Assembly (NCBI RefSeq): GCF_036365525.1
Contig: NC_090407.1
Coordinates: forward strand, 21,914,084-21,978,083
Length of the DNA stretch: 64,000 bases
DNA from: Heterodontus francisci
Lineage: Eukaryota
Direction: 5' to 3'
Shown here one piece after another: positions 43,021 through 64,000 of this stretch (position 1 is its first letter; the number at the start of each line of letters is the position of its first letter). Below the pieces are notes generated by a model. That model saw only the letters and a program-made list of their open reading frames with translations, was not told the origin of the DNA and made no database searches. The position numbers were made by a program, and so were the translations under genes.

Positions 43021-43186
43021 GCAGACAGACTGAACCAACACTATGCATACATATAGAAAAAGCTATCTAATTAATCAGAATCCCCTGCTCAGCCAGTATT
43101 ACTGCTCCCCAACACTGTCCAGTGACCCCTGGATTCGAGAGGGGAAAATCAGCCAGGTTTCCTGCTCCTGATCACTGTGACCCTTG

Positions 43187-43975
43187 GTTTTTTTTAATTT
43201 CCAAAATATACTTTATTCATAAAAATCTGTAAAAATTACATTCCCAAACAGTTTAAAACAGCATCAAGTCAAAAAATACAAACAGTGCAAAGGTGATCAG
43301 TTTCCTTCAATACAATCATGAGTTGCCTCACAACTCTTCCATTTCATTGTCATGCCATTAACATTTTTACATTTACAGCACACAATATTTTCCCGATACA
43401 GTTCGAGGGGTTTCCCATGGATCCAGCTCCTCAGTTCAGCTTGGTGGGGGACCTGACACAGTGGTCTTTCCCCATTGAGCCTTTGCTGCGGCTTCCCCAA
43501 GCTTTAGTGCGTCCCTCAGCACATAGTCCTGGACCTTGGAATGTGCCAGTCTGCAACATTCGGTGGTGGACAACTCTTTGCACTGGAAGACCAGCAAGTT
43601 TCGGGCAGACCAAAGGGCGTCTTTCACCGAATTGATAGTCCTCCAGCAGCAGTTGATGTTTGTCTCGGTGTGCGTCCCTGGGAACAGCCTGTAGAGCACA
43701 GACTCCTGTGTTACAGAGCTGCTTGGGATGAACCTCGACATAAACCACTGCATCTCTTTCCACACCTGCTTTGCAAAGACACATTCCAGGAGGAGGTGGG
43801 CAACCGTCTCTTCCCCACCACAGCCACCGCGGGGGCATTGTGCGAAGGGGGCGAGACTTCGGGCGTGCATGTAGGATCTGATGGGGAGGGCCCTTCTCAC
43901 CACCAGCCAAGCTACATCTTGGTGCTTGTTTGAAAATTCTGGTGATGAGGTATTCCGCCAAATGACTTTGACGGT
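43187..43975 (-). mobile_element. Tx1-clade LINE, 5'-truncated 3' fragment
   Basis: CPRGGCGGEETVAHLLLEC zinc finger, stop, AATAAA, poly(A). Confidence 0.9.
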
Positions 43976-45265
43976 CTGCGATTGCAGGGGAAGGTGCCAT
44001 GGGAAGGGGACGAGGTGTTGGGGGTAATGGAGGAATGGACCAGGGTGTCATGGAGGGAACGATCCCTTCGGAATGCTGACAGGGGAAGGGAGGGGAAGAT
44101 GCGTTTGGTAGTGGCATCATGCTGGAGGTGGCGGAAATGGTGGAGGATGATCCTTTGGATATGGAGGCTAATGGGGTGGAAAGTGAGGACAAGGGGAACC
44201 CTGTCACGGTTCTGGGAGGGAGGGGAATGGGTGAGGGTAGAGGTGCGGGAAATGGGCTGGATGCGGTTGAGGGCCCTGTCCACCACAGTGGGGGGGAATC
44301 CTCGGTTGAGGGAACAGGAAGACATATCAGAAGCGCTGTCATGGAAGGTAGCATCATCAGAGCAGATGCGTCGGAGATGGAGAAACTGGGAGTATGGAAT
44401 GGGGTCCTTACAGGATGCAGGGTGTGAAGAAGTGTAGTCGACGTAGCTGTGGGAATCGGTGGGCTTATAATGGATATTAGTAGACAGCCTATCCCCAGAG
44501 ATGGAGAGAGAGAAGTTGAGGAAGGGAAGTGTCAGACATGGACCATGTAAAGGTGAGAGAAGGGTGGAAATTAGAAGCAAAGTTGATAAAGTTTTCCAGT
44601 TCGGGGCGGGAGCAGGAAACGGCACCGATAACAGTCATCAATGTACCGGAAAAAGAGTTGGGGGAGGGCGCCTGAGTAGGACTGGAACAAGGAATGTTTG
44701 ACAAATTCCACAAAAAGACAGGCATAAACTAGGACCCATGTGGGTACCCATTGCAACACCTTTTATTTGAAGGAAGTGAGTGGTGTTGAAGAAGAAGTTG
44801 TTCAATGTGAGAACAAGTTCAGCCAAGCGGAGGAGGGTGGTGGTGGATGGGGACTGGTTGGGCCTCTGTTCAAGGAAGAAGCGGAGAGCCCTCAAACCAT
44901 CCTGGTGGGGGATGGAGGCGTAGAGAGATTGGCCGTCCATAGTGAAGAGGAGGCGGTTGGGGCCAGGAAACTGGAAATTGTCAAAATGACGTAGGGCGTC
45001 AGAAGAGTCACGGATGTAGGTGGGAAGAGACTGGACCAAGGGAGAAAAGATAGAGTCAAGATAGGAAGAAATAAGTTCAGTGGGGCAGGAGCAGGCTGAC
45101 ACAATGGGTCGGCCGGGACAGTCCTGTTTGTGGATTTTGGGAAGGAGGTAGAAGGGGCTGTCCGGGGTTGTGGGACTATGAAGTTGGAAGTTGTAGAGGG
45201 AACATCTCCAGAGGAGATGAGGTCAGTGACAGTCCTGTGGACAGCAGCTTGATGTTTGGTCGTGG
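43976..45265 (-). mobile_element. Penelope-like element RT fragment
   Basis: LAELVLTLNNFFFN..QIKGVAMGT, FFRYIDD, YKPTDSHSY.DYTSSHP..IPYSQFL..RRICS. Confidence 0.9.
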
Positions 45266-53800: not shown

Positions 53801-54679
53801 TCATCTCGTGTGGCTGTTAACATCTATAGGTTTAGAGGATTAGAAGGTGACGTGGCCATCAGCATCGGGTGAGAGTGTCTACAAACCAATCTTTCTTTTT
53901 CAATAAATAAAGGGCACTGCATTAATTTATTTGCTAAAAGAATGTGAAATTGAATTAGACACTGGATGTTAGACAACCTGCAGTGAAGCTCTCGCTTGTA
54001 GCCTTGTGTGGCTTTAACTGATCATAGCTGAGATTGAACTGGGATTCCAGACAGAAATCCACCTGAAAATCCATGGCTTCATCGTTATCTCCAGTAAAAG
54101 TCGCCTCACATTTTCCAGCATGATATGGGATGAGCAATTCCTTGTGCTGGATGAAAGAATCCTTTTCTGAATCAGTTGTGTGACTTTTTCATTGCTAGAT
54201 TCAAAATTGTTATTTGGGGAGAGAACTGTGGGAAATAGTTTGATTAGAAGTGAATGTTGTGGGGTGAAATTGCTGGGTGATTTTTTAACAGCGCTGTTAA
54301 CCGTTTGAAATAAACACCATTGTGACAAATGACATCTGCTTCAATTCTGGATTGATTGAGAACTGGTTACATATTTGTGGCTTTTTTACAATTATTTCAT
54401 GAACAGCATTACCAACACTGGTAGCTTTTAAATATGTTATCTTCTATTTTTCAGTGTTAATTACATATTTCAGTGAGCTGTGCCATTTTCTGTTGTCACA
54501 TCAAACCTGAGGCTGTTGCTCAGTGTCTGTGAGAATTTCTTGAACACAATGGCCAGAGCTACCTGCACTATTTCTATAACCTCAAACGTTAATTTAATTC
54601 ACTGTCCTATTTCATTTTAATCCCTGCTGTGAAACGATTTATTGTGGCATCGCTGCCATTTATGGACATTGAAAGAACC

Positions 54680-55000
54680 GCTCCCGGTTCTTCAGTAGCT
54701 GAGCCATTAACCGGAGGTGCTAAGTTCAATCCCCAGTCCACGCTGAGTCAGCTTACTTTTGTCAGGGCACCGGCTCAAGGGTGGCTAGAGTTGGGTTCTG
54801 TATCCCGGCATTAGGGAGGGGAGAATGAGCCAAGGTTCCTGCTCTTGATCAGTACTTAGTACCTCCTATCAGACAGCGTATGTATTTGGATGTTGGTCAT
54901 GGATGTGATGCATCCTGCAGTTGAATAAACCTGTCAACACTCAGCCTAAACTCTCAATAAATAATGGCACTTGGGTGAGGTAACAGGATGTCCAACTCCC
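54680..55000 (+). repeat. Old SINE-like repeat; related pieces near 43135-43185 and 52080-52300
   Basis: Shared GGGAGGGGA..AGCCA(A/G)GGTTCCTGCTC(C/T)TGAT and GGCACTTGG.TGAGGTA motifs. Confidence 0.45.
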
Positions 55001-55159
55001 ATCGACCCATACCCGAGTGATAGTTAATACCTGTGGATCTGCAGCCCAGTGAGAGTCAGAAATGATGGAATAGTGTAGAGGGAGAATTACTTTACCCTGT
55101 ACTATACCTGACCTGGGAGAGTTTGACAGGTATACTACAGATTCACTGGATGATGCCTG

Positions 55160-55530
55160 GTGTGTATGTATAGTATACACAAATCTAAAGCCTCAACATC
55201 CTTCCTATAATGTGGACCCAAAACTTCTCTCTCCAGTTGTGGTCTTACTGAGGTTTTATACAGATTCACTGTTACATACCGATTTCTATATTCAGTACCA
55301 CTTGCCATTAAAACCCAGTATTCCATTAGCTTTTTATGACCTTATCCACTTGAGGTGCTGTTTTTAATGCTGTGAGCCTGAACCCTCAAATCCCTCTGCT
55401 CTTCTACATCATCCAGCCTTCCCCTAAAGTATAATTATTGCTTACATTTTGGTAAAAAATACATCACCTCACATTTACTGCTGTTGAGTTCCTCCTGCCA
55501 CATCTTTGCCCATTCCAACATCTTATCTGC
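55160..55530 (-). mobile_element. Old CR1 fragment
   Basis: NLYKTSVRPQLE..PHYRKDVEAL. Confidence 0.7.
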
Positions 55531-56245
55531 TACAGAAACTTTTGAAACCCGATGGGATGTGTAAGACACGATTAAAACAGCCACCATAAAACCTTAAATA
55601 CACTAACACTGAGATCCAACTTTACAAGTGGGTGGAGCAAGTTTGAAATTTGGTATCGAATCATGGGTTTCAGAATAATTAAGTAAGAAGAATGAAGATT
55701 ATCTAAAGTTGGATTACATGATTATCTTTTACTCTTAACTATCTCTTTGTAATGAAAGCTAAAAGAAGTCTATTGATAATTAAAAGTTACAGAAATAAGA
55801 GGAAAGTATGTAATGTTACTAAATTCCTGGCGGAGTGAGACATTTTATAGTCAGAAAATGGAATTTAAGAATTATTCACACAAACATGTTCCCAGGTAAC
55901 TAGTTCAGGGTGTCATGGTATTGAGAGCAGACGGTACAGCATGAGGAGGACGTGTTAGAATCTGAGCGCACAGGCTGTGGGCTTGTTGAATCCGCCAGGA
56001 GGCCTTTGTGCAACTTGAAATGACAGCAAGAGGCTGCAGGCCAGTTCTATGCTGGCTCCAATGGCTGTTAGTAATGATGCTACCCCAGCATTTCTTCCTG
56101 GGCACTCACCACTGAAACTCTTATGCCGGGATAAATGTTAATGAAAATCCAACCGACACTCCCCTGTTTACATTTGAGCAGAGGGAATTTAGCCTCTCCT
56201 GTTTCTCTAGAATTCAGAAACAAAACCCATGGCAACGTCGGCAGG

Positions 56246-59200
56246 TTTTTTTTTCCCCAAAAGTATACTTTATTCAGAAAAATCTGTTAAAATAAAATAC
56301 ATTACAAAACAATTCAAAACAGCACCAAGTTGATATTCCAGAAAGTGCAAAGGAAATCAGTTTTCTTCAATACAGGAGTGAGTTGCCTCCCAACCCTTGC
56401 ATTCCATTTTACATAGAATGTACATTTTACAGCAAACCCATATTTGGTGTATACAGCCCGAGGGGTTTTCCATGGGTCCAGTCCCTTGGTTCACTGGCGG
56501 GAGGACCTTACACAGTGGTCTTTCTCCATTGAGCCTTTGCGGCGGCAGCCCCAAGCTTTATTGGGTCCCTCAGCATGTAGTCCTGGACCTTGGTCTGCAA
56601 CACTCAGTCATGGACAACTCTTTGCACTGTAAGACCAGCAAGTTTCAGGCAGACCACAGAGCATCCTTCATCGAATTGATGGTTCTCCAGCACCAGTTGA
56701 TGTTTATCTCGGTGCGCGTCCCTGGGAACAGCCCATAGAGCACAGACTCCTGTGTTATAGAGCTGCTTCGGATGAACCTCGACATAAACCACTGCATCTC
56801 TTTCCACACCTGCTTTGCAAAGACACATTCCAGAAGGAGGTGGGCAACAGTCTCTTCCCCACCACAGCGACCTCAAGGGCAGCCTGTGGAGGTGGTGAGA
56901 TTCCAGGCGTGCAGGAAGGATCTGACGGAGAGGGTCCTTCTCACCACCAGCCAAGCTACATCTTGGTGCTTGTTTGAAAGTTCTGGTGATGAGGCATTCT
57001 GCCAAATGACTTTGGCGGTCTGCTCGGGGAACCATATGACAGGATCCACCATCTCCTTTTCCCGTAGGGCCTTGAGGACATTCTGTGCAGACCACTGCCT
57101 GATGGATTGGTGGTCAAAGGCATTTTTCTGTACAAACTTTTCCATGAAGGATAGGTGGTACGGCACAGACCAACTGGATGGAGCATTCCATGGCAATGTG
57201 GCCAGTCCCATCCTTCACAGCACCGGGGACAGATAGATCCTCAGCACGTAGTGACATTTGGTGTTTGCATTCTGGGGTTCTATGCACAGCTTGATGCAGC
57301 CGCACATGAAGGTGATCATTAGGATGAGGGCAATGTTGGGTACGTTTGTTCCGCCTTTATCCAGAGGTTTGAGTATCGTGTCCCTCCGGAACCGGTCCAT
57401 TTTGCATCTCCAAATAAAGCGGAAAATGGCTCAGGTGACCGCCATGGCACAGGGGTGGAATTTGGGACAGACCTGCGCCACATACAGCAACAACGTGAGC
57501 GCCTCACACCCAATGACCTGTTTCTTACCCGCAATGGAGAGAGATCACTGCTCCCACATGCTGAGTTTATGGTGTACCATGGCTAAGCGCTCCTTCCAGG
57601 TTTTTGCGCACGCCCTGGCCCTTCCAAACCATATCCCCAGCACCTTTGGGTAGTCTGACCTGACGGTGAAGGGGACAAGGGATCGGTCAGCCCAGTTCCC
57701 AAAGAACATGGCCTTGTTCTTGCCGTGTTGTACTTTGACTCCCAAGGCTAGTTCGAACTGGTCACAGATGCACAGTCTGTGGATGGACAGCAGATCCAAG
57801 CAGAAGACGGCAACGTCGTCCACGTACAGGGAGGCTTTGACTTGACTGCCTCTGCTGCCAGGAATTGCCACTCCTCTTATGTCCGCATCCTTCCTAATGG
57901 ACTCAGCAAAGGGTTCGATACAGTGAACAAACAAGACTGGAGAGAGGACAGCCCTGTCTGACTCCAGATGTGATCGGGAAACTTTCTGATTCCCACTCAT
58001 TGAGACTGTACTAACGATGTTTGTGTAGAGCAGTTTGATCCAATTGCGGATTCCCTCCCCAAACCCCATTTTGGAGACCACGTCCATCATGTATGTGTGC
58101 GATATCCTGTCAAAAGCCTTCTCCTGGTCCAAGCTGATGAGGCAGGTGTCCACCCCCCCTGTGCCGTACATAGGCCATCGTATCCCTGAGTAGCGCAAGA
58201 CTATCAGAGATCTTCCTGCTGGATACAGTACAGGTCTGGTCAGGGTGAATCAGCAACTCCAGAGCAGACTTGACCTGACTGGTGATGACTTTGGACAGAA
58301 TCTTGTAGTCTACATTAAGCAGTGAGATGGGCTGCCAATTTCTGATTTCCGCCTCCTCTCCCTTCCGCTTGTAGATGAAGGTGATGATGCCTTTCCTCAT
58401 GGATTCTGACATGCTGCCGGCCAGAAGCATATTCTCGTACACTTCCAGCAAGTCTGCACCGATCCAGTTCCACAGAGTCGAATACAACTCAACCGGTAAG
58501 CCATTGCTTCTGAGAGTTTTACTCGTCTCAAAGGACCTGACAGCCTTTGTCAGCTAGTCCAGAGTTAGCGGTTTGTTCAGATCCTCCCGTATGCTGTCAT
58601 CTAAGACCTCCGTGATAGATGACAGGAAGGACTGGGAGGCCGTGCTGTCCATGGGCTTCACATTGTACAGTCCAGCATAAAAGGATTTGCTAATCCTTAG
58701 TATGTCAGACTGCGAAGGCGTTACCAAGCCATCCTCTTTCTTCAGGCTGCTGATCGCAGAGCTCTCTGTGTGTACTTTTTGGAAGAAGAAACGCGAGCAC
58801 ATCTCACCCTGCTCATCGGAGAGGACTCTGGACTGGAAGATAATCTTGGTGGCCTGCAATGGCAAAGAGCGAGGCCTGCTGGCTCTTCACCTCTTGGAGA
58901 TCCTCCTTGACCTCGACACCCATCGACTGCAGCCGGAGCAGATTTTGCATTCTTTTCTGGAGTCGTGACATTTCCCTCTGTCTCTCTCTCACCCTCTGAA
59001 CACCTTTGAAGATAAAGGACCTCTTGATGTTCGCCTTGATCGCATCCCACCAGTGCACCAGAGACTCAAAGAGGGGTTTCATGGTTCTCCAACCTTTGTA
59101 ATTCCTTTTGAGTTCCTCAGTGTTCTCTGGGGTTAGCAGTGTAACATTTAGCTTCCATGTCCCCCTGCCAACCCACTGGTTGTCCTATAAGTGACAGTCA

Positions 59201-61464
59201 GCCAGTAAGAGGCAGTGGTCAGAGAAAAACACTGGCTCGACGTCGGTGGATCTGACTGTGAAAGCTTGGGACACAAACAGGAAGTCAATCCTGAAACAGG
59301 CAGACTCATCCGGTCTTGACCAGGTGTATCTACGCTGTGCTCCGTCTGCAGGTTTGCTGAAGACGTCGTGCAACTTGGCATCTTTTACTGTTTCCATTAG
59401 GAATCTGGACGTAGCGTCCAGTTTGCTGTCATCACTGCCGATCGTCCAGCTGTGTTAATGATGCAGTTGAAGTCACCGCCGAGAATGAATGGCCTGGATG
59501 TCGCCAGCAGCAGTGGGACCTGCTGGAAGATGGTCAGCCGCTTGCTGTATTGAACCGGGGCGTACACGTTGATTAACCAGAGCAGAGCATTGATGTACAT
59601 TACATCTGCATACGAGGAGGCGACTGCCCACCACCTCCTGAACTGCAGAGATAGTGACGTTGCCTCCCCGCAGCAGAATACCCAAGCCGGAGGAAGGAGA
59701 ATAATTTCTCCCTGACCAGACCAGCCCATTGGACCACCATTGCCTGTAGGTGCTGATGTGCAGAATTCCACACTCCTGCAGAAACAGCAGGTCGGCTTTG
59801 ACCTTGGCGAGGTAGTCCAAGGTTGTAACACATTGCGTAGTGGATTTAACGGTATGCACGTTAATCGAAGTAATCTTTATACCCATTTTACAGTTGGGTG
59901 TTGCTTACCACACCAGGTGTCCTTGCTAGTCCCAGTTCTTGAGTATGTTCCTGCATACCCATAATGTACACAAGCTGTTTCACATTTGTTAGACTCAGAA
60001 ACCCCTCCTGGTTACTCATGGGGGGTTTGTTCCACTGGGGTGACATCGGGGGGGGTCTTGTAGGCAGCAAGGCTTGGGCTATCCTCTGCTGGTGGTGTCT
60101 TTCCCCTCTGTCCCTCCTCGAAGCCATCACTGCTCCCGGCTTCCCGGAGCTGGAGTGCGCCAGACGCTTCGCTGCTCTCAGACTCCCGGAGCTGGGGTGT
60201 GCTGGGCATCTCGCTGGGTTCAGCGCTTTGAGGTTGGGGCGCGCTGGGCCCGTCACAGCTTCCAGTGCCCGAGAGCTGGGGGGCTTTCTCTTCCAATTCC
60301 TTTGAGTTCTGCCGCTTCTTTTGGAGGTGCCGTCTTTCCGGCCCTTCCTCATCCAATGAGGAGAAGCTGCCGTAGTCTGTCTCCTCTTGCCACTCGTTTG
60401 GGTGGTGACCTGTTCCTTTTTTGGAGGCTTCTTTGTGGTTTTCCTTTTCACCACTTGCCACTGACCAGTTTATCTATCTGCTGCCTCCGCCTCCATTGAT
60501 ATTGTCTGTAGAGGAGGAGTTTCCGGGCACGGGGTAGGTGTTGGATTGCTGGTTGCAGCTGCCTACCCTTTCTTCTCCTTCTCAAATTGACTTTCCTTGC
60601 TGCGGGGAGGATTTCTTGTCTCCTTCCCAGCACCAGATGCGTTCACCGTTCCTTCTCCCGGCCTTTCCTTGGACCTTACCGCCTGTGCATAACTGAGGTA
60701 GGTTTTGTCGAGGTGGTCTGTCCCTCTGCACAGATTGCAGCACTTACTCTGTTTACAGTTCTTGGTCTCATGGCCTTCCTTCTTGTAGTTCTTGCAGACG
60801 ACTCTGCTGCAGTTGGCCGCCACAAGACCAGATTTGCCACAGGTACGACAAACTCTGGGCTGCCCCGCATAGACCAGGAAGCCTCGACTTGCCCTGATAG
60901 TGAAGCTGGAGGGAGGACGGATGATGGCTCCATTGGCATCAACCTTCAAGGTAACCTTGACCTGCCGTTTGCTGGTCCAAATCCCAAATGGGTCCTTGAC
61001 ATCAGCGTTGCTGCCGGCCACCTTGACGTATCTGGCAAGGAAGATGAGTACATCTGTGACAGGAACATGGAGATTGTCATCACCCGGTCGTGTTGCAACA
61101 GCAGCGTGAAGAGTGGCTCCACTGTGAGGATCGACAGTGGCACCTAGTTTCCACTCTCCTTGAACACCTTCAGGAACTTGATCCCGCCACATTCATGAAC
61201 GTCATGTTGAAATATCCACTGCTGGGGAAATCCTGCAGGCAGAAGATGTTTGCAGCTTGGAATCTGCAGCAATCCATAAGGATTTTCTTAATGAAGAAGG
61301 TGCGGTCAACTGGTGCACCTCCTTCATTACCCTTCACCTTCACCCGAAAGGTGTTAAGCACTCCCTGGCCTGAAGCTCTAGAATTGGTTACAGCCATTTT
61401 GCTCAAAATTTACCTGGAACATGATCAAAGGCCACTGATCATGGTCTCTCCCTTGCCAGGTAAC
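56246..61464 (-). mobile_element. Full-length, decayed Tx1-clade LINE with U1 snRNA-derived head
   Basis: ORF1 ATG 61397 to stop 59888 (ZCCHC3-like N-terminus, three zinc knuckles); ORF2 ATG 59886 to about 56508 (APE SINV/LQE/GDFN/SDH, RT LDQEKAFD/YVDD, CCHC); AATAAA plus poly(A); flanking duplication A(n)CCTGCCGA. Confidence 0.95.
61432..61463 (-). pseudogene. U1 snRNA 5' fragment forming the LINE head
   Basis: TTACCTGGCAAGGGAGAGACCATGATCA-GTGG; 26/28 to U1 nt 5-32 as recalled. Confidence 0.8.
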
Positions 61465-61472
61465 TCGGCAGG

Positions 61473-62203
61473 TTTTTTTTTTCTCAAAAATATACTTCAT
61501 TCATAAAAATCTGTTAAAAAAAATATATACATTACAACACAGTTCAAAACAGCACCAAGTTGACATTCCAAAAAGTGCAAAGGAAATCAGTTTTCTTCAA
61601 TACAGGAGTGGGTTTCCTCACAACCCTTCCATTCCATTTTACATGCCATGTACATTTTACAGCAAACCCATATTTGGTGTATACAGCCCAAAGGGTTTCC
61701 CATGTGTCCAGCCCCTCAGTTCACTATGGTGGGAGGACCTTACACAGTGGTCTTTCCCCATTAAGCCTTTGCTGCGGCTGCCCCAAGATTTAGTGTGTCC
61801 CTCAGCACATAGTCCTGGACCTTGGAATGTGCCAGTCCGCAACATTCGGTCGTGGACAACTCTTTGCGCTGGAAGACCAGCAAGTTTTGGGCAGACCAAA
61901 GAGCATCTTTCACCGAATTGATGGTCCTCCAGCAGCAGTTGATGTTTATTTCGGTGTGCGTCCCTTGGAACAGCCTGTAGAGCACAGACTCCTGTGTTCA
62001 AAAGCTGCTCGGGATGAACCTCGACAAAAACCACTACATCTCTTTCCACTCCTGCCTTGCAAAGACATATTCCAGAAGGAGGTGGGCAACTGTCTCTTCC
62101 CCACCACAGCCACCTTGAGGGCAGCGTGCAAAGGGGGCGAGACTCTGGGCATGCAGGAAGGATTTGACAGGGAGGGCCCTTCTCACTACCAACCAAGCTA
62201 CCT
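61473..62203 (-). mobile_element. Tx1 3' fragment directly upstream of the full-length copy
   Basis: CPQGGCGGEETVAHLLLE, AATAAA-like signal, poly(A) abutting CCTGCCGA. Confidence 0.9.
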
Positions 62204-62750
62204 CTTTTTTTTCCCCCAAAAATATATTATTCATAAAATTTGTAAAAATACATTAAATAACACTTCAAATTTGGCATCACTTAAAGTGCAATTCAGATCA
62301 GTTTCTTTCAATACAGAACATGAGGTGCCTCACTACACTTGCCATTACAGGTTATATTTACAGTGTACATTTACATTTCATGTCAAACACTCTCTGGTGT
62401 ATACAGCTCAAGGGGTTTTACACGGGTTCCAGCCCTCGGTATACTATGGCAGGAGGGTCTTACACAGTTGCCTTTCCCCATTGAGCCTTTGTAGCGGCAT
62501 AGTTCTGAACCATGTAATGCATCAGTCTGTAATATTTGGTCATCGACAGCTCTTTGCACCGGAAGACCAGCAAGTTTCGGGCAGACCAAAGAGCGTCTTT
62601 CAATGAGTTGATGGTCCTTCAGCATCGAGGTCACGTTTCCGCACCAACGTATTTATGAGGAAGTTTGGAGGAGCTAGGGTTTGTAGCGTAATGTTTATCT
62701 CGATATTTGTCCCTGGGAACAGCCTGTAGAGTGGAGTCCTGCATTATGGA
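62204..62750 (-). mobile_element. Diverged Tx1 3' fragment (other subfamily)
   Basis: KDALWSARNLLVF-like coding remnant, related 3' UTR, poly(A). Confidence 0.8.
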
Positions 62751-62907
62751 GCTGTCCCAGTGACACAGTGATGGTGACGCTAACACGGTGACAGTGATCA
62801 ACAGTCATGGTGACCGTGATAGTTGTACTTCATGGTGACAGTGGGCTCCTCCCTCCTGGATACATGTTTTGTACAATTCCTGGTTCCCAGTTTACATTCA
62901 GCACAAA

Positions 62908-63553
62908 CCTGCCCTCGAGGTCGCTGTGGTGGGGAAGAGACGGTTGCCCACCTCCTCCTGGAATGTGTCTTTGCAAAGTAGGTGTGGAATGAGATGCAGT
63001 GGTTTTTGTCCAGGTTCATCCCAAGCAGCTCTGTAACACAGGAGTCTGTGCTCTACGGGCTGTTCCCAGGGATGCACACCGAGATAAACATCAACTGCTG
63101 CTGGAGGATCATCAATTCAGTGAAAGACGCCTTTTGGTCTGCCCAAAACTTGCTGGTCTTCCAGAGCAAAGAGTTGTCCACGACTGAATGTTGCGGACTG
63201 GCACATTCCAAGGTCCAGGACTATGTGCTGAGGGAATCACTAAAGCTTGGGGCAGCCGCAGCAAAGGCTCAATGGGGAAAGACCACAGTGTAAGGTCCCC
63301 CCACCAAGGTGAACTGAGGGGCTGGATCCATGGGAAACCCCTCAACTGTATCCAGAAAATAATTGTTTTGCTGTAAAATGTACATAGCATGTAAAATGAA
63401 ATGAAAGGGTCGTGAGGCAAACTCACTCCTGTATTGAAGGAAACTGATCTCTTTTGCACTCTTTGTATTGTTTGACTTTGTGCTTTTTGGAACTTTTGTA
63501 ATGTATTTTTTACAGTTTTTATGAATAAAGTATATTTTGGAAATTAAAAAAAA
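62908..63553 (+). mobile_element. Tx1 3' fragment, plus strand
   Basis: WFLSRFIPSSSVTQESVLYG..AAAAKAQWGKTTV-stop, AATAAA, poly(A). Confidence 0.9.
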
Positions 63554-63565
63554 CAAACCTGCCAG

Positions 63566-63598
63566 CTTACCTGGCAGGGGAGAGACCATGATCAGTGG
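63566..63598 (+). pseudogene. U1 snRNA 5' fragment forming the LINE head
   Basis: CTTACCTGGCAGGGGAGAGACCATGATCA-GTGG; 28/29 to U1 nt 4-32 as recalled. Confidence 0.85.
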
Positions 63599-64000
63599 GC
63601 TTTGCTCCTGTTCCAGATAGGTTTTGAGTAAAATGGCTGTAACCAATTCTAGAGCTTCAGACAGGGAGTGCGTAACACTGTTTGGGTGGTGGTGAAGGGT
63701 AATGAAGGAGGTGCACTTGTTGACCGTACCTTCGGCATTAAGAAAATCCTTATTGATTGCTGTGAATTCCAAGCTGCAGACATCATCTGCCTGCAGGACT
63801 TCCCCAGCAGTGGATATTTTGATGTGACATTCAAGAACCTGGCAGGATGCATCAAGTTCCTGAAGGTGTTCAAGGTGAAGGAAACCAGGCGCTGCTGTCG
63901 ATTCTCACAGTGGAGCCGCTTTTCACGCTGCTGTCGCAACGCGACCGGGTGGTGACAATTCACCCCTGTAACCTCCATGTTCCTGTCGTGGACGTGCTCA
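63566..64000 (+). mobile_element. 5' end of a second U1-headed Tx1 element (runs off the right edge)
   Basis: U1-like head, ATG 63633, ORF1 NTVWVVVKGNEGG..DIICLQDFPSSGYFDVTF. Confidence 0.9.

Follow-up and report, generated by a model that had tools for sequence, protein, structure and literature searches.

U1- and U2-derived 5′ ends of a Keno-type Tx1 LINE in Heterodontus francisci: probable origin from snRNA genes used as insertion sites

Introduction

A 64,000-nucleotide stretch of the Heterodontus francisci genome (NC_090407.1, positions 21,914,084 to 21,978,083), referred to here as the window, contains two copies of a Tx1-type LINE that begin with the front of U1 snRNA. How does a LINE acquire such a 5′ end, and from which promoter could it be transcribed? 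Kojima and Fujiwara reportedly described the Tx1 element Keno in U2 snRNA genes in 2004. The initial annotation of this locus regarded a U1 head as a novelty. This holds less well than it supposed, as Tx1 LINEs with U1 heads have been published: among the crocodilian Tx1-Mar elements, Tx1-2_Crp, Tx1-2B_Crp and Tx1-4_AMi carry U1 heads and Tx1-11_Crp carries a U2 head (Kojima, 2015; PMC4494074). The same paper left the transcription of snRNA-headed retroposons open, since snRNA promoters are external. Keno itself is cited as a Tx1-clade LINE with an AP endonuclease inserted in U2 snRNA genes (PMC4494074, PMC4640811, PMC6136364).

Results

The two copies in the window

The heads proposed at 63566-63598 (plus strand) and 61463-61432 (minus strand) were confirmed in the sequence, 66-67 nt upstream of the ORF1 start codons at 63633 and 61397, respectively, and both are derived from host U1 (Table 1). 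Both copies lack the first 3-4 nt of U1. No U1 was returned by Rfam for 54000-64000, a piece of 30 nt being too short for detection. Neither copy is the autonomous LINE that had been envisaged: according to tblastn with intact relatives, each ORF of the minus copy is disrupted by stops and frame changes, and the plus copy ends inside ORF1 about 300 bases past the window end. A local inverted duplication is excluded, as the copies share 364 of 417 aligned bases (87%), their flanks are unlike and the head recurs throughout the genome.

Table 1. Features of the Tx1 copies in and around positions 56,238 to 64,000 of the window
Feature	Position	Strand	Evidence
8-nt target-site duplication (TSD), 3′ copy; target neither U1 nor U2	56238..56245	-	
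Minus copy, 3′ UTR, poly(A) signal and A tail	56246..56510	-	Sequence; shared tail motif
Minus copy, broken ORF2 (AP endonuclease, reverse transcriptase, zf-RVT)	56511..59889	-	tblastn with intact relative P0001; Pfam
Minus copy, broken ORF1 (ZCCHC3-like RNA-binding domains, CCHC knuckles)	59900..61397	-	tblastn with intact relative P0002; Pfam on P0002
Minus copy, remaining 5′ UTR: GTGG and a probable older, decayed U1-derived layer for which pairing with the U1 5′ arm is predicted	61398..61435	-	Comparison with older copies L122, L113 and L109; folds
Minus copy, U1 head (host U1 nt 5-32)	61436..61463	-	27/28 identity with host U1 genes
TSD, 5′ copy; encloses the minus head	61465..61472	-	
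5′-truncated copy, tandem stack on the target of the minus copy	61473..62206	-	87% against 3′ end of full copy
More distant relative, 3′ end only	62205..62624	-	About 70% identity
5′-truncated copy immediately upstream of the plus head	62909..63554	+	
Plus copy, U1 head (host U1 nt 4-32)	63566..63594	+	29/29 identity with host U1
Plus copy, remaining 5′ UTR	63595..63632	+	
Plus copy, beginning of ORF1; copy ends inside ORF1 past the window	63633..64000	+	

The initial annotation interpreted the head as a modified U1 mimic. This is not supported, since the sequence is that of a host allele: the supposed element-specific change U22G is the G carried by 11 of 12 host U1 genes. A shared 5-nt loop deletion could not be demonstrated either. 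An undeleted U1 1-41 intermediate was not found among five matches, none of them element-related, and U1 1-32 joined onto an older, decayed U1 layer would explain the data at least as well. The proposed GGAG/CUCC extension of the stem depends on a letter found only in a minority of copies.

U1 heads across the genome

U1 nt ~1-32 was present on 26 of 30 near-full-length copies that had been collected independently of the head, and the exact U1 1-19 pattern gave 155 genome matches compared with none for the reversed control. One junction is common to 43 of 65 heads. The head is common to the family and lies inside TSDs. It is not simply passed on unchanged, as its nt-22 allele changes along the tree from that of one host U1 paralogue to that of another and back. 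No U1 promoter was detected upstream of dispersed exact heads (0/30). One old copy is headed by U1 1-56 (47/56 identical), the length predicted from insertion at nt 40 plus a TSD. Headed copies with longer UTRs likewise continue into ORF1. A conserved 5′ splice site ahead of ORF1 was considered as a general feature and rejected: many window-type copies have it, but the older long-UTR copies and the youngest copies lack it.

These data bear on the possibility that every headed copy is a separate chimera of U1 snRNA and LINE RNA, formed by template switching or RNA ligation as for U6/L1. Such chimeras do arise in this genome, where six of eight dispersed U1 pseudogenes are U1-SINE chimeras; copies L119 and L125 carry longer U1 pieces with other junctions, and Kojima (2015; PMC4494074) accounts for the SINEU-2 extensions in this way. 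However, the head is carried by most unselected near-full-length copies (26 of 30), its junction is almost constant, and an identical junction is found in U2 genes behind promoters (see below). As a general cause independent chimeras are thus largely refuted and we consider them highly improbable, though single copies such as L119 may be explained by them.

Insertions at the U2 site

Approximately 14,533 exact tails were found, of which 354 form exact U2 junctions (control 0) and 192 form U1 junctions; about 96% are off target. U2 at the Keno site is the main target of the lineage, and the youngest subfamily carries a U2 head on top of its U1 head; both features had escaped the initial annotation. 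The insertion point lies at U2 nt 38/39, and the 3′ flank matches the published target of Keno (PMC6136364). In two U2 arrays, all seven full-length promoter-backed copies join at U2 nt 52, and six truncated copies join at 47, 48, 50, 52, 57 and 57. U2 promoters lie upstream of intact young copies, whose twins dispersed in the genome start at U2 +1 and carry exactly U2 1-52.

The 40 best dispersed matches, which were picked by identity to the U2 junction, all carry it (40/40). Thirty of these begin at U2 +1, and 25 of the 40 have TSDs of at least 7 nt. In 20 of the 30 starting at +1, a G precedes this position where the gene has C (p 2e-7), which fits a copied cap; for U1 heads the corresponding count, 10/30, was not significant (p 0.10). 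Insertions at this U2 position also occur within U2 heads that lack a promoter (L277 and L287), which may point to sequence recognition rather than to promoter tethering alone. L282 combines a U2 target with a U1 head bearing three changes; in the tree it forms the sister of the U2-headed clade (85/80).

Insertions at the U1 site

U1 is interrupted at nt ~40 in two of 36 promoter-bearing U1 genes (best 40 of 160 candidates scored), with duplications of 15-16 nt. One of these genes holds two tandem intact copies; the other insertion has a 16-nt TSD. By hand calculation, chance would account for approximately 2e-4 such events. Among unselected 3′ flanks, 3 of 30 resembled U1 41-52 (9-10 of 12 letters) compared with 2 of 660 null windows. 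The 192 tail-U1 junctions mostly belong to one amplified segment. No window-type element (U1 1-32 followed by GTGG) was found in the 36 genes, so that the locus from which this subfamily arose was not detected among them. The CCTGCC flank shared within the window, tried as a family target, was rejected as a local TSD since it is absent from 30 other 3′ flanks, and inspection of 30 3′ flanks by eye gave no common non-snRNA target.

U1 sequence downstream of the element was found in L181, a dispersed copy in which a single 17-nt TSD encloses the U1 head, the element, the U1 3′ half, the 3′ box and poly(A). A similar but truncated unit, L176, is flanked by a TSD of 11 nt. TSDs are thus present in two of nine units with a U1 3′ half, and no convincing TSD was seen in the other seven. 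The transduced 3′ half comes from a U1 variant, L393, that reads A at nt 22; the heads of the two full-length carriers (L177 and L181) likewise read A22.

Assignment of the lineage

The lineage has the Tx1-type domain set, as judged by Pfam on intact relatives: CCHC knuckles in ORF1, AP endonuclease, reverse transcriptase and a C-terminal zinc motif in ORF2, a poly(A) tail and TSDs. The endonuclease is AP-type (Exo_endo_phos, 4e-15) and not restriction-like. Xenopus Tx1L (P0094, 29%) was the sole curated named relative among the matches listed, and the RT tree comprised neither a named L1 outgroup nor other references; no sequence named Keno appeared among 120 homologues listed or 10 clusters looked up. 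The U2 site of Keno, ~37-38 nt from the 5′ end, and its published 3′ flank are shared by the lineage, mainly by young copies, the window copies being off target. Strict U2 specificity as in Keno was not observed. U1- or U2-derived 5′ ends as in Tx1-Mar are present. With a length of 5.2-5.3 kb and two ORFs, the element is not a SINEU, which is short and non-coding. Judged from these sequence features, the lineage acts like Keno with relaxed, dual targeting.

Discussion

Origin of the heads

Most probably, snRNA heads represent the front of the host snRNA gene of the source copy, transcribed from its promoter. This reading is based on the dispersed twins starting at U2 +1, the copy with a U1 3′ half and the intermediate with U1 under U2. 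The window contains dead copies of a Keno-type Tx1 LINE that inserts in U2 (nt 38/39) and U1 (nt ~40), the U1 head likely being the front of the U1 gene of the source copy and likely transcribed from its promoter. The guess in the initial annotation that an ancestor resided in a U1 gene and was read from its promoter is the best supported part of that annotation, given that the lineage enters U1 genes and that a dispersed copy carries the U1 3′ half.

In the proposed cycle, Pol II would start at snRNA +1, transcribe the front of the snRNA together with the element (5.3 kb) and end at the poly(A) site of the latter. On re-entry into an snRNA gene, the head cDNA would anneal to the target, which would create a uniform 5′ junction and replace the head with host-gene sequence; a comparable step has been proposed for R2 in 28S. 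Off-target insertions, about 96% of tails, are probably promoterless dead ends. Older, window-type copies would come from U1-gene sources and the youngest from U2-gene sources, with heads stacked. As the window-type head stops at nt 32, before the nt-40 site, an additional step would be needed: either the joining by homology also deleted part of the target, or a deletion followed later. Human U1 and U2 transcription units, as far as described in PMC3874203, reach only ~1 kb, so that a 5.3-kb read-through would need to escape normal termination. Assembled contigs of guessed RNA status span the head in organisms A and B, with start and strand unreadable.

Alternatively, one or a few capture events, through insertion in an snRNA gene or template switching to free snRNA, might have produced heads that were then inherited as a plain 5′ UTR, with an internal promoter in the UTR or ORF1 starting at +1 and dispersed copies also acting as sources. 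The single junction of 43/65 heads and the missing U1-gene source of the window subfamily (36 genes; best 40 of 160 candidates) agree with this. In addition, 40 variants common to at least four dispersed young copies occurred in none of 12 sampled gene-resident copies, which allows for sources outside snRNA genes. Several results speak against it, however. The entire 5′ UTR of ~70 nt is built from fragments of snRNA, and internal promoters are not known from such sequences (PMC4494074). Following U2 capture the start shifted exactly to the new snRNA +1, the nt-22 allele alternates between two host paralogues, and 3′ transduction from a U1 gene is demonstrated. Furthermore, private changes average 7 in gene-resident copies and 22 in dispersed ones. 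The tree, which omits 4 of 40 dispersed copies (two without a tail in range, two by length), is compatible with either view: 12 gene-resident copies are interspersed among the youngest of 36 dispersed copies, and older dispersed-only groups are also present. On balance, we regard purely inherited heads as unlikely.

Folding of the captured arm

Predicted folds of a typical copy place the U1 splice-site arm in a cis duplex (P about 0.98) within the 5′ UTR of the element, rather than leaving it free. The predicted duplex reaches -22.7 kcal/mol compared with -11.7 kcal/mol for host U1, a strength matched by none of 864 body windows. Folding z-scores had a median of -1.4, with 6 of 30 copies under -2 and the two window copies at -1.6 and -1.4. 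Even where the U1 part is intact, P(paired) of the head is about 0.5. For the U2-head hairpin, p was 0.03-0.04. Mutational perfecting of inverted repeats could yield such hairpins without selection. Masking of the captured arm by a hairpin is therefore only suggestive as a model. That the head is a working U1 mimic, aiding the element through splice-site pairing of its 5′ arm or through recruitment of U1-related factors, is highly improbable. Many copies do retain the arm, and every layer seen has an altered U1-70K loop; but the cis duplex described above would occupy the arm, and the youngest, active subfamily has five changes in arm nt 3-13 with a U2 head in its place.

Relation to known systems

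A wider reading, which we put forward as tentative, is that a promoterless vertebrate LINE re-enters spliceosomal RNA genes, with two U1 paralogues in alternation and then U2 as promoter host, and folds each captured arm (U1 splice-site, U2 branch-point) into a hiding 5′ hairpin. If true, it would answer the question of how SINEU and LINEs with snRNA heads are transcribed. This question becomes testable here through the intact copies located behind U2 and U1 promoters, the +1 twins, the U1 3′ transduction and the U1-to-U2 intermediate. The finding adds U1 as a LINE target and implies that a 5.3-kb polyadenylated mRNA would be possible from an snRNA promoter. No LINE targeting U1 and no stacked record of U1-to-U2 host switching was found in the literature searched, which excluded Repbase, Dfam and subscription papers; earlier cataloguing is possible.

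Like Keno, as far as it is described in the papers cited above, the lineage has an APE-RT ORF2, inserts in U2 with an identical 3′ flank and forms tandem stacks in U2 arrays; it adds the U1 nt ~40 target, the many off-target tails, stacked U1/U2 heads and evidence of U1-gene sources. With crocodilian Tx1-Mar and SINEU, a group that reportedly clusters with Keno, it shares U1/U2-derived 5′ ends and the repeated addition of heads (PMC4494074). Those elements, however, target a Mariner element, with a preference of Tx1-Mar for Mariner-N4_AMi, or LTR elements, and their heads are put down to template switching with transcription left open (PMC4494074), whereas here snRNA genes themselves are targeted and intact promoter-bearing copies exist. 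R2 in 28S rRNA genes differs by its restriction-like endonuclease, Pol I co-transcript and self-cleaving ribozyme (PMC3774820); in the present lineage, a Pol II snRNA start would give the 5′ end directly. For U1 as a target, a 2015 paper names only Dada-U1. Dada is a DNA transposon, and Utopia uses the same U2 site with a restriction-like endonuclease (PMC4640811, PMC8869645).

U1-derived heads in the window and across the family

Both heads lie where the initial annotation had placed them, with the ORF1 ATG 66-67 nt downstream. The Rfam model located 42 host U1 matches, of which 34 were near-identical on contigs C41 and C32. The plus head is identical to host U1 nt 4-32 (29/29) and the minus head matches nt 5-32 at 27 of 28 positions. 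The U22G change read as a modification of the element is the host allele, since 11 of the 12 U1 genes read carry G at nt 22. The two copies are distinct: over a 417-base alignment their 5' ends share 87% identity, and their flanks are unlike. In the minus copy both ORF1 and ORF2 contain stops and frame changes, and the plus copy ends abruptly inside ORF1, beyond the window.

A head-independent search by the ORF1 start alone yielded 30 loci from 40 scored of 2030 candidates, one being the window copy. The match to U1 1-32 exceeded all null scores in 26 of these, beginning at nt 1-4 in 16 and at nt 5-10 in 10, which confirms that the head is common to the family. The remaining four comprised one weakly headed locus, two truncated loci and L069, where a U2 piece precedes a U1 remnant; the latter (L069/L137) is an independent U2 capture, apart from the main U2-headed copies. 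U1 1-19 occurs exactly 155 times in the genome. Among the first 30 matches, 29 continued into this LINE lineage (17 checked by BLAST, the others by eye) and the remaining one proved to be U1 1-72 joined to a SINE; no U1 promoter lay upstream of any of them. In several full-length copies, including L203, L204 and L208, the head lies within the target-site duplication (TSD) and starts at U1 +1. The U1 head is thus real and family-wide.

Heads of this kind are already known: the passages of Kojima 2015 (PMC4494074) on crocodilian Tx1 families describe U1 or U2 heads and attribute them to template switching, leaving transcription open. The variant described here is a LINE resembling Keno that targets both U1 and U2, does so with relaxed specificity, and has stacked heads. 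A U1-targeting LINE was absent from the literature searched, Repbase and Dfam lying outside that search, and the relevant parts of PMC8869645, PMC5786205 and PMC5381603 contain nothing on such elements.

Insertion into U2 and U1 genes

U2 at the Keno site is the main target of the lineage, and the insertion load on the U2 arrays is high. Exact junctions between the element tail (3' end with poly(A)) and U2 numbered 354 versus 0 in the control, mostly in arrays on C41, and the U2 flank equals the Keno target in the pertinent passages of PMC6136364 and PMC4640811. All seven full-length copies directly behind a promoter (66 kb, two arrays) are joined at U2 nt 52, most with intact ORFs, and six truncated array copies join at nt 47-57. 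About 96% of tails lie at neither the U1 nor the U2 target. Among the best 40 dispersed U2-headed matches, all 100% identical over the head, 30 start at U2 +1 and 25 have a TSD of at least 7 nt. In 20 of the 30 copies starting at +1 the preceding base is G, against C in the gene (p 2e-7); this extra G fits cap copying, for which L1 offers a parallel. The same test on U1 heads (10/30) was not significant.

The lineage also targets U1. Exact tail-U1 junctions numbered 192 versus 0 in the control, most belonging to one amplified segment, and 3 of 30 unselected 3' flanks contain U1 41-52-like sequence. The 36 promoter-bearing canonical U1 genes include two that are interrupted at nt 40, the other 34 being intact; chance would give about 2e-4 such events in this set (hand calculation from 14,533 tails). 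In the first the insert is a truncated copy flanked by a 16-nt TSD. The second runs from the promoter through U1 1-54 into a tandem pair of copies (99.2% alike, ORF1 and ORF2 intact), followed by U1 40-164 and the 3' box.

Coordinates and loci of the features (first five rows, window positions; G000, genome assembly; C, contig; L, locus)
Feature	Location	Strand	Remark
Plus copy, head	63566-63598	+	
Minus copy, head	61463-61432	-	
Minus copy, full length	56246-61463	-	inside 8-nt duplication
Further family copy	43184-43979	-	5'-truncated
Short inverted piece	62691-62754		between minus and plus stacks
L069/L137	G000:C18:32230500 onward		U2 ~3-51, short U1 remnant, window-type UTR
Mapped U2 arrays	G000:C41:6326000-6362000 and 8078000-8108000		insertion in every U2 gene mapped, many intact
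Uninterrupted U2 repeats	L290-L295		near the two mapped array stretches
Amplified segment	G000 C35, C28, C50 and numerous small contigs; L151-L169, L215-L239, L401		old promoter-bearing U1 gene, stack of several insertions, U1-headed copy immediately downstream; copy number well >100
A22 paralogue remnants	pseudogenes L393, L397; transduced halves L140-L143, L145, L148-L150		
U1 pseudogenes	L391, L392, L394, L395, L396, L397		the six joined to a SINE; Rfam U1 matches outside gene clusters

Transduction of the U1 3' half

Nine units carry, after the element and its poly(A), the 3' half of U1 and then a further A run. In L181 a single TSD of 17 nt spans the whole stretch from the U1 head through that further A run, and in L176 an 11-nt TSD flanks a truncated unit; the other seven lack a convincing TSD. 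The source RNA of at least some U1-headed copies thus contained the 3' half of a U1 gene. In eight of the nine units this half comes from a U1 variant whose nt 22 is A (as in L393), and both full-length carriers have an A22 head. Among 65 heads, 35 are G22, 26 A22-type and 4 other. The A22 paralogue also differs in loop I and stem II, and no promoter-bearing gene of it was found among 40 scored matches.

History of the heads

In trees built from 24 and 22 natural copies, with a midpoint root serving only for display and age taken from end-branch lengths, the copies form a ladder. The longest branches are the long-UTR copies, one with a U1 1-56 head (47/56 identical); next come window-type copies (U1 1-32 plus GTGG), with U1 1-32 above an older U1-like layer, and the U2-headed clade (U2 1-52 on top) is nested and youngest (support 100/100). 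In its sister, L282 (85/80), the U2 target leads into U1 2-32, a stretch with 3 changes in L282 and 8 in the young copies. The nt-22 allele switches back and forth along the ladder, and L195, a long-UTR copy placed among younger ones, may be a chimera. The stacked heads likely record promoter borrowing.

Proposed transcription mechanism

The target sites with their duplications, the intact copies next to promoters, the starts at +1, the transduction and the intermediate L282 together make it rather probable that the heads arose by transcription from a borrowed snRNA promoter through the element. The snRNA promoter would drive transcription through an inserted element, and on reinsertion the head cDNA would anneal to the snRNA target, giving uniform 5' junctions and a head renewed from the host gene; such annealing is likewise postulated for R2 in the corresponding passage of PMC3774820. 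Several points speak against this mechanism. No RNA start was seen in the assembled contigs consulted; the window-type head stops at nt 32, not ~52; no window-type copy is left in the 36 promoter-bearing U1 genes (best 40 of 160 candidates scored); human snRNA transcription units are given as ~1 kb in the relevant part of PMC3874203; and some variants are common to dispersed copies only.

The proposal of a free U1-mimic arm is disfavoured by predicted pairing in cis. In the typical window-type 5' UTR, U1 nt 3-12 are predicted to pair with a downstream complement (-22.7 kcal/mol; 0 of 864 body windows equally strong). The fold z was -3.3 for L002; across 30 heads the median was only -1.4, and the window copies were not significant. 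For young copies the predicted partner of the U2 branch-point arm is the altered U1 layer (p 0.03-0.04). The hairpin may be a product of selection, of which folds are no proof.

Relatives and U1-SINE chimeras

The ORF1 protein P0002 (L172:3588-5114) matches both Pfam RNA-binding domains named after the vertebrate protein ZCCHC3. The closest named ORF2 relatives (P0004 and P0017 clusters) are from Pleurodeles and Coilia; their locus numbers run consecutively, as though these copies were arrayed in the manner of those in the U2 arrays. A single short protein match, 79% to Heterodontus, suggests that the host is a cartilaginous fish. In six of eight dispersed U1 pseudogenes, U1 is cut near nt 160 and fused directly to a SINE 5' end, and in L110 the same fusion follows a cut at nt 72. 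By eye the SINE partner looks tRNA-type, and the chimeras resemble those of U6 and L1.
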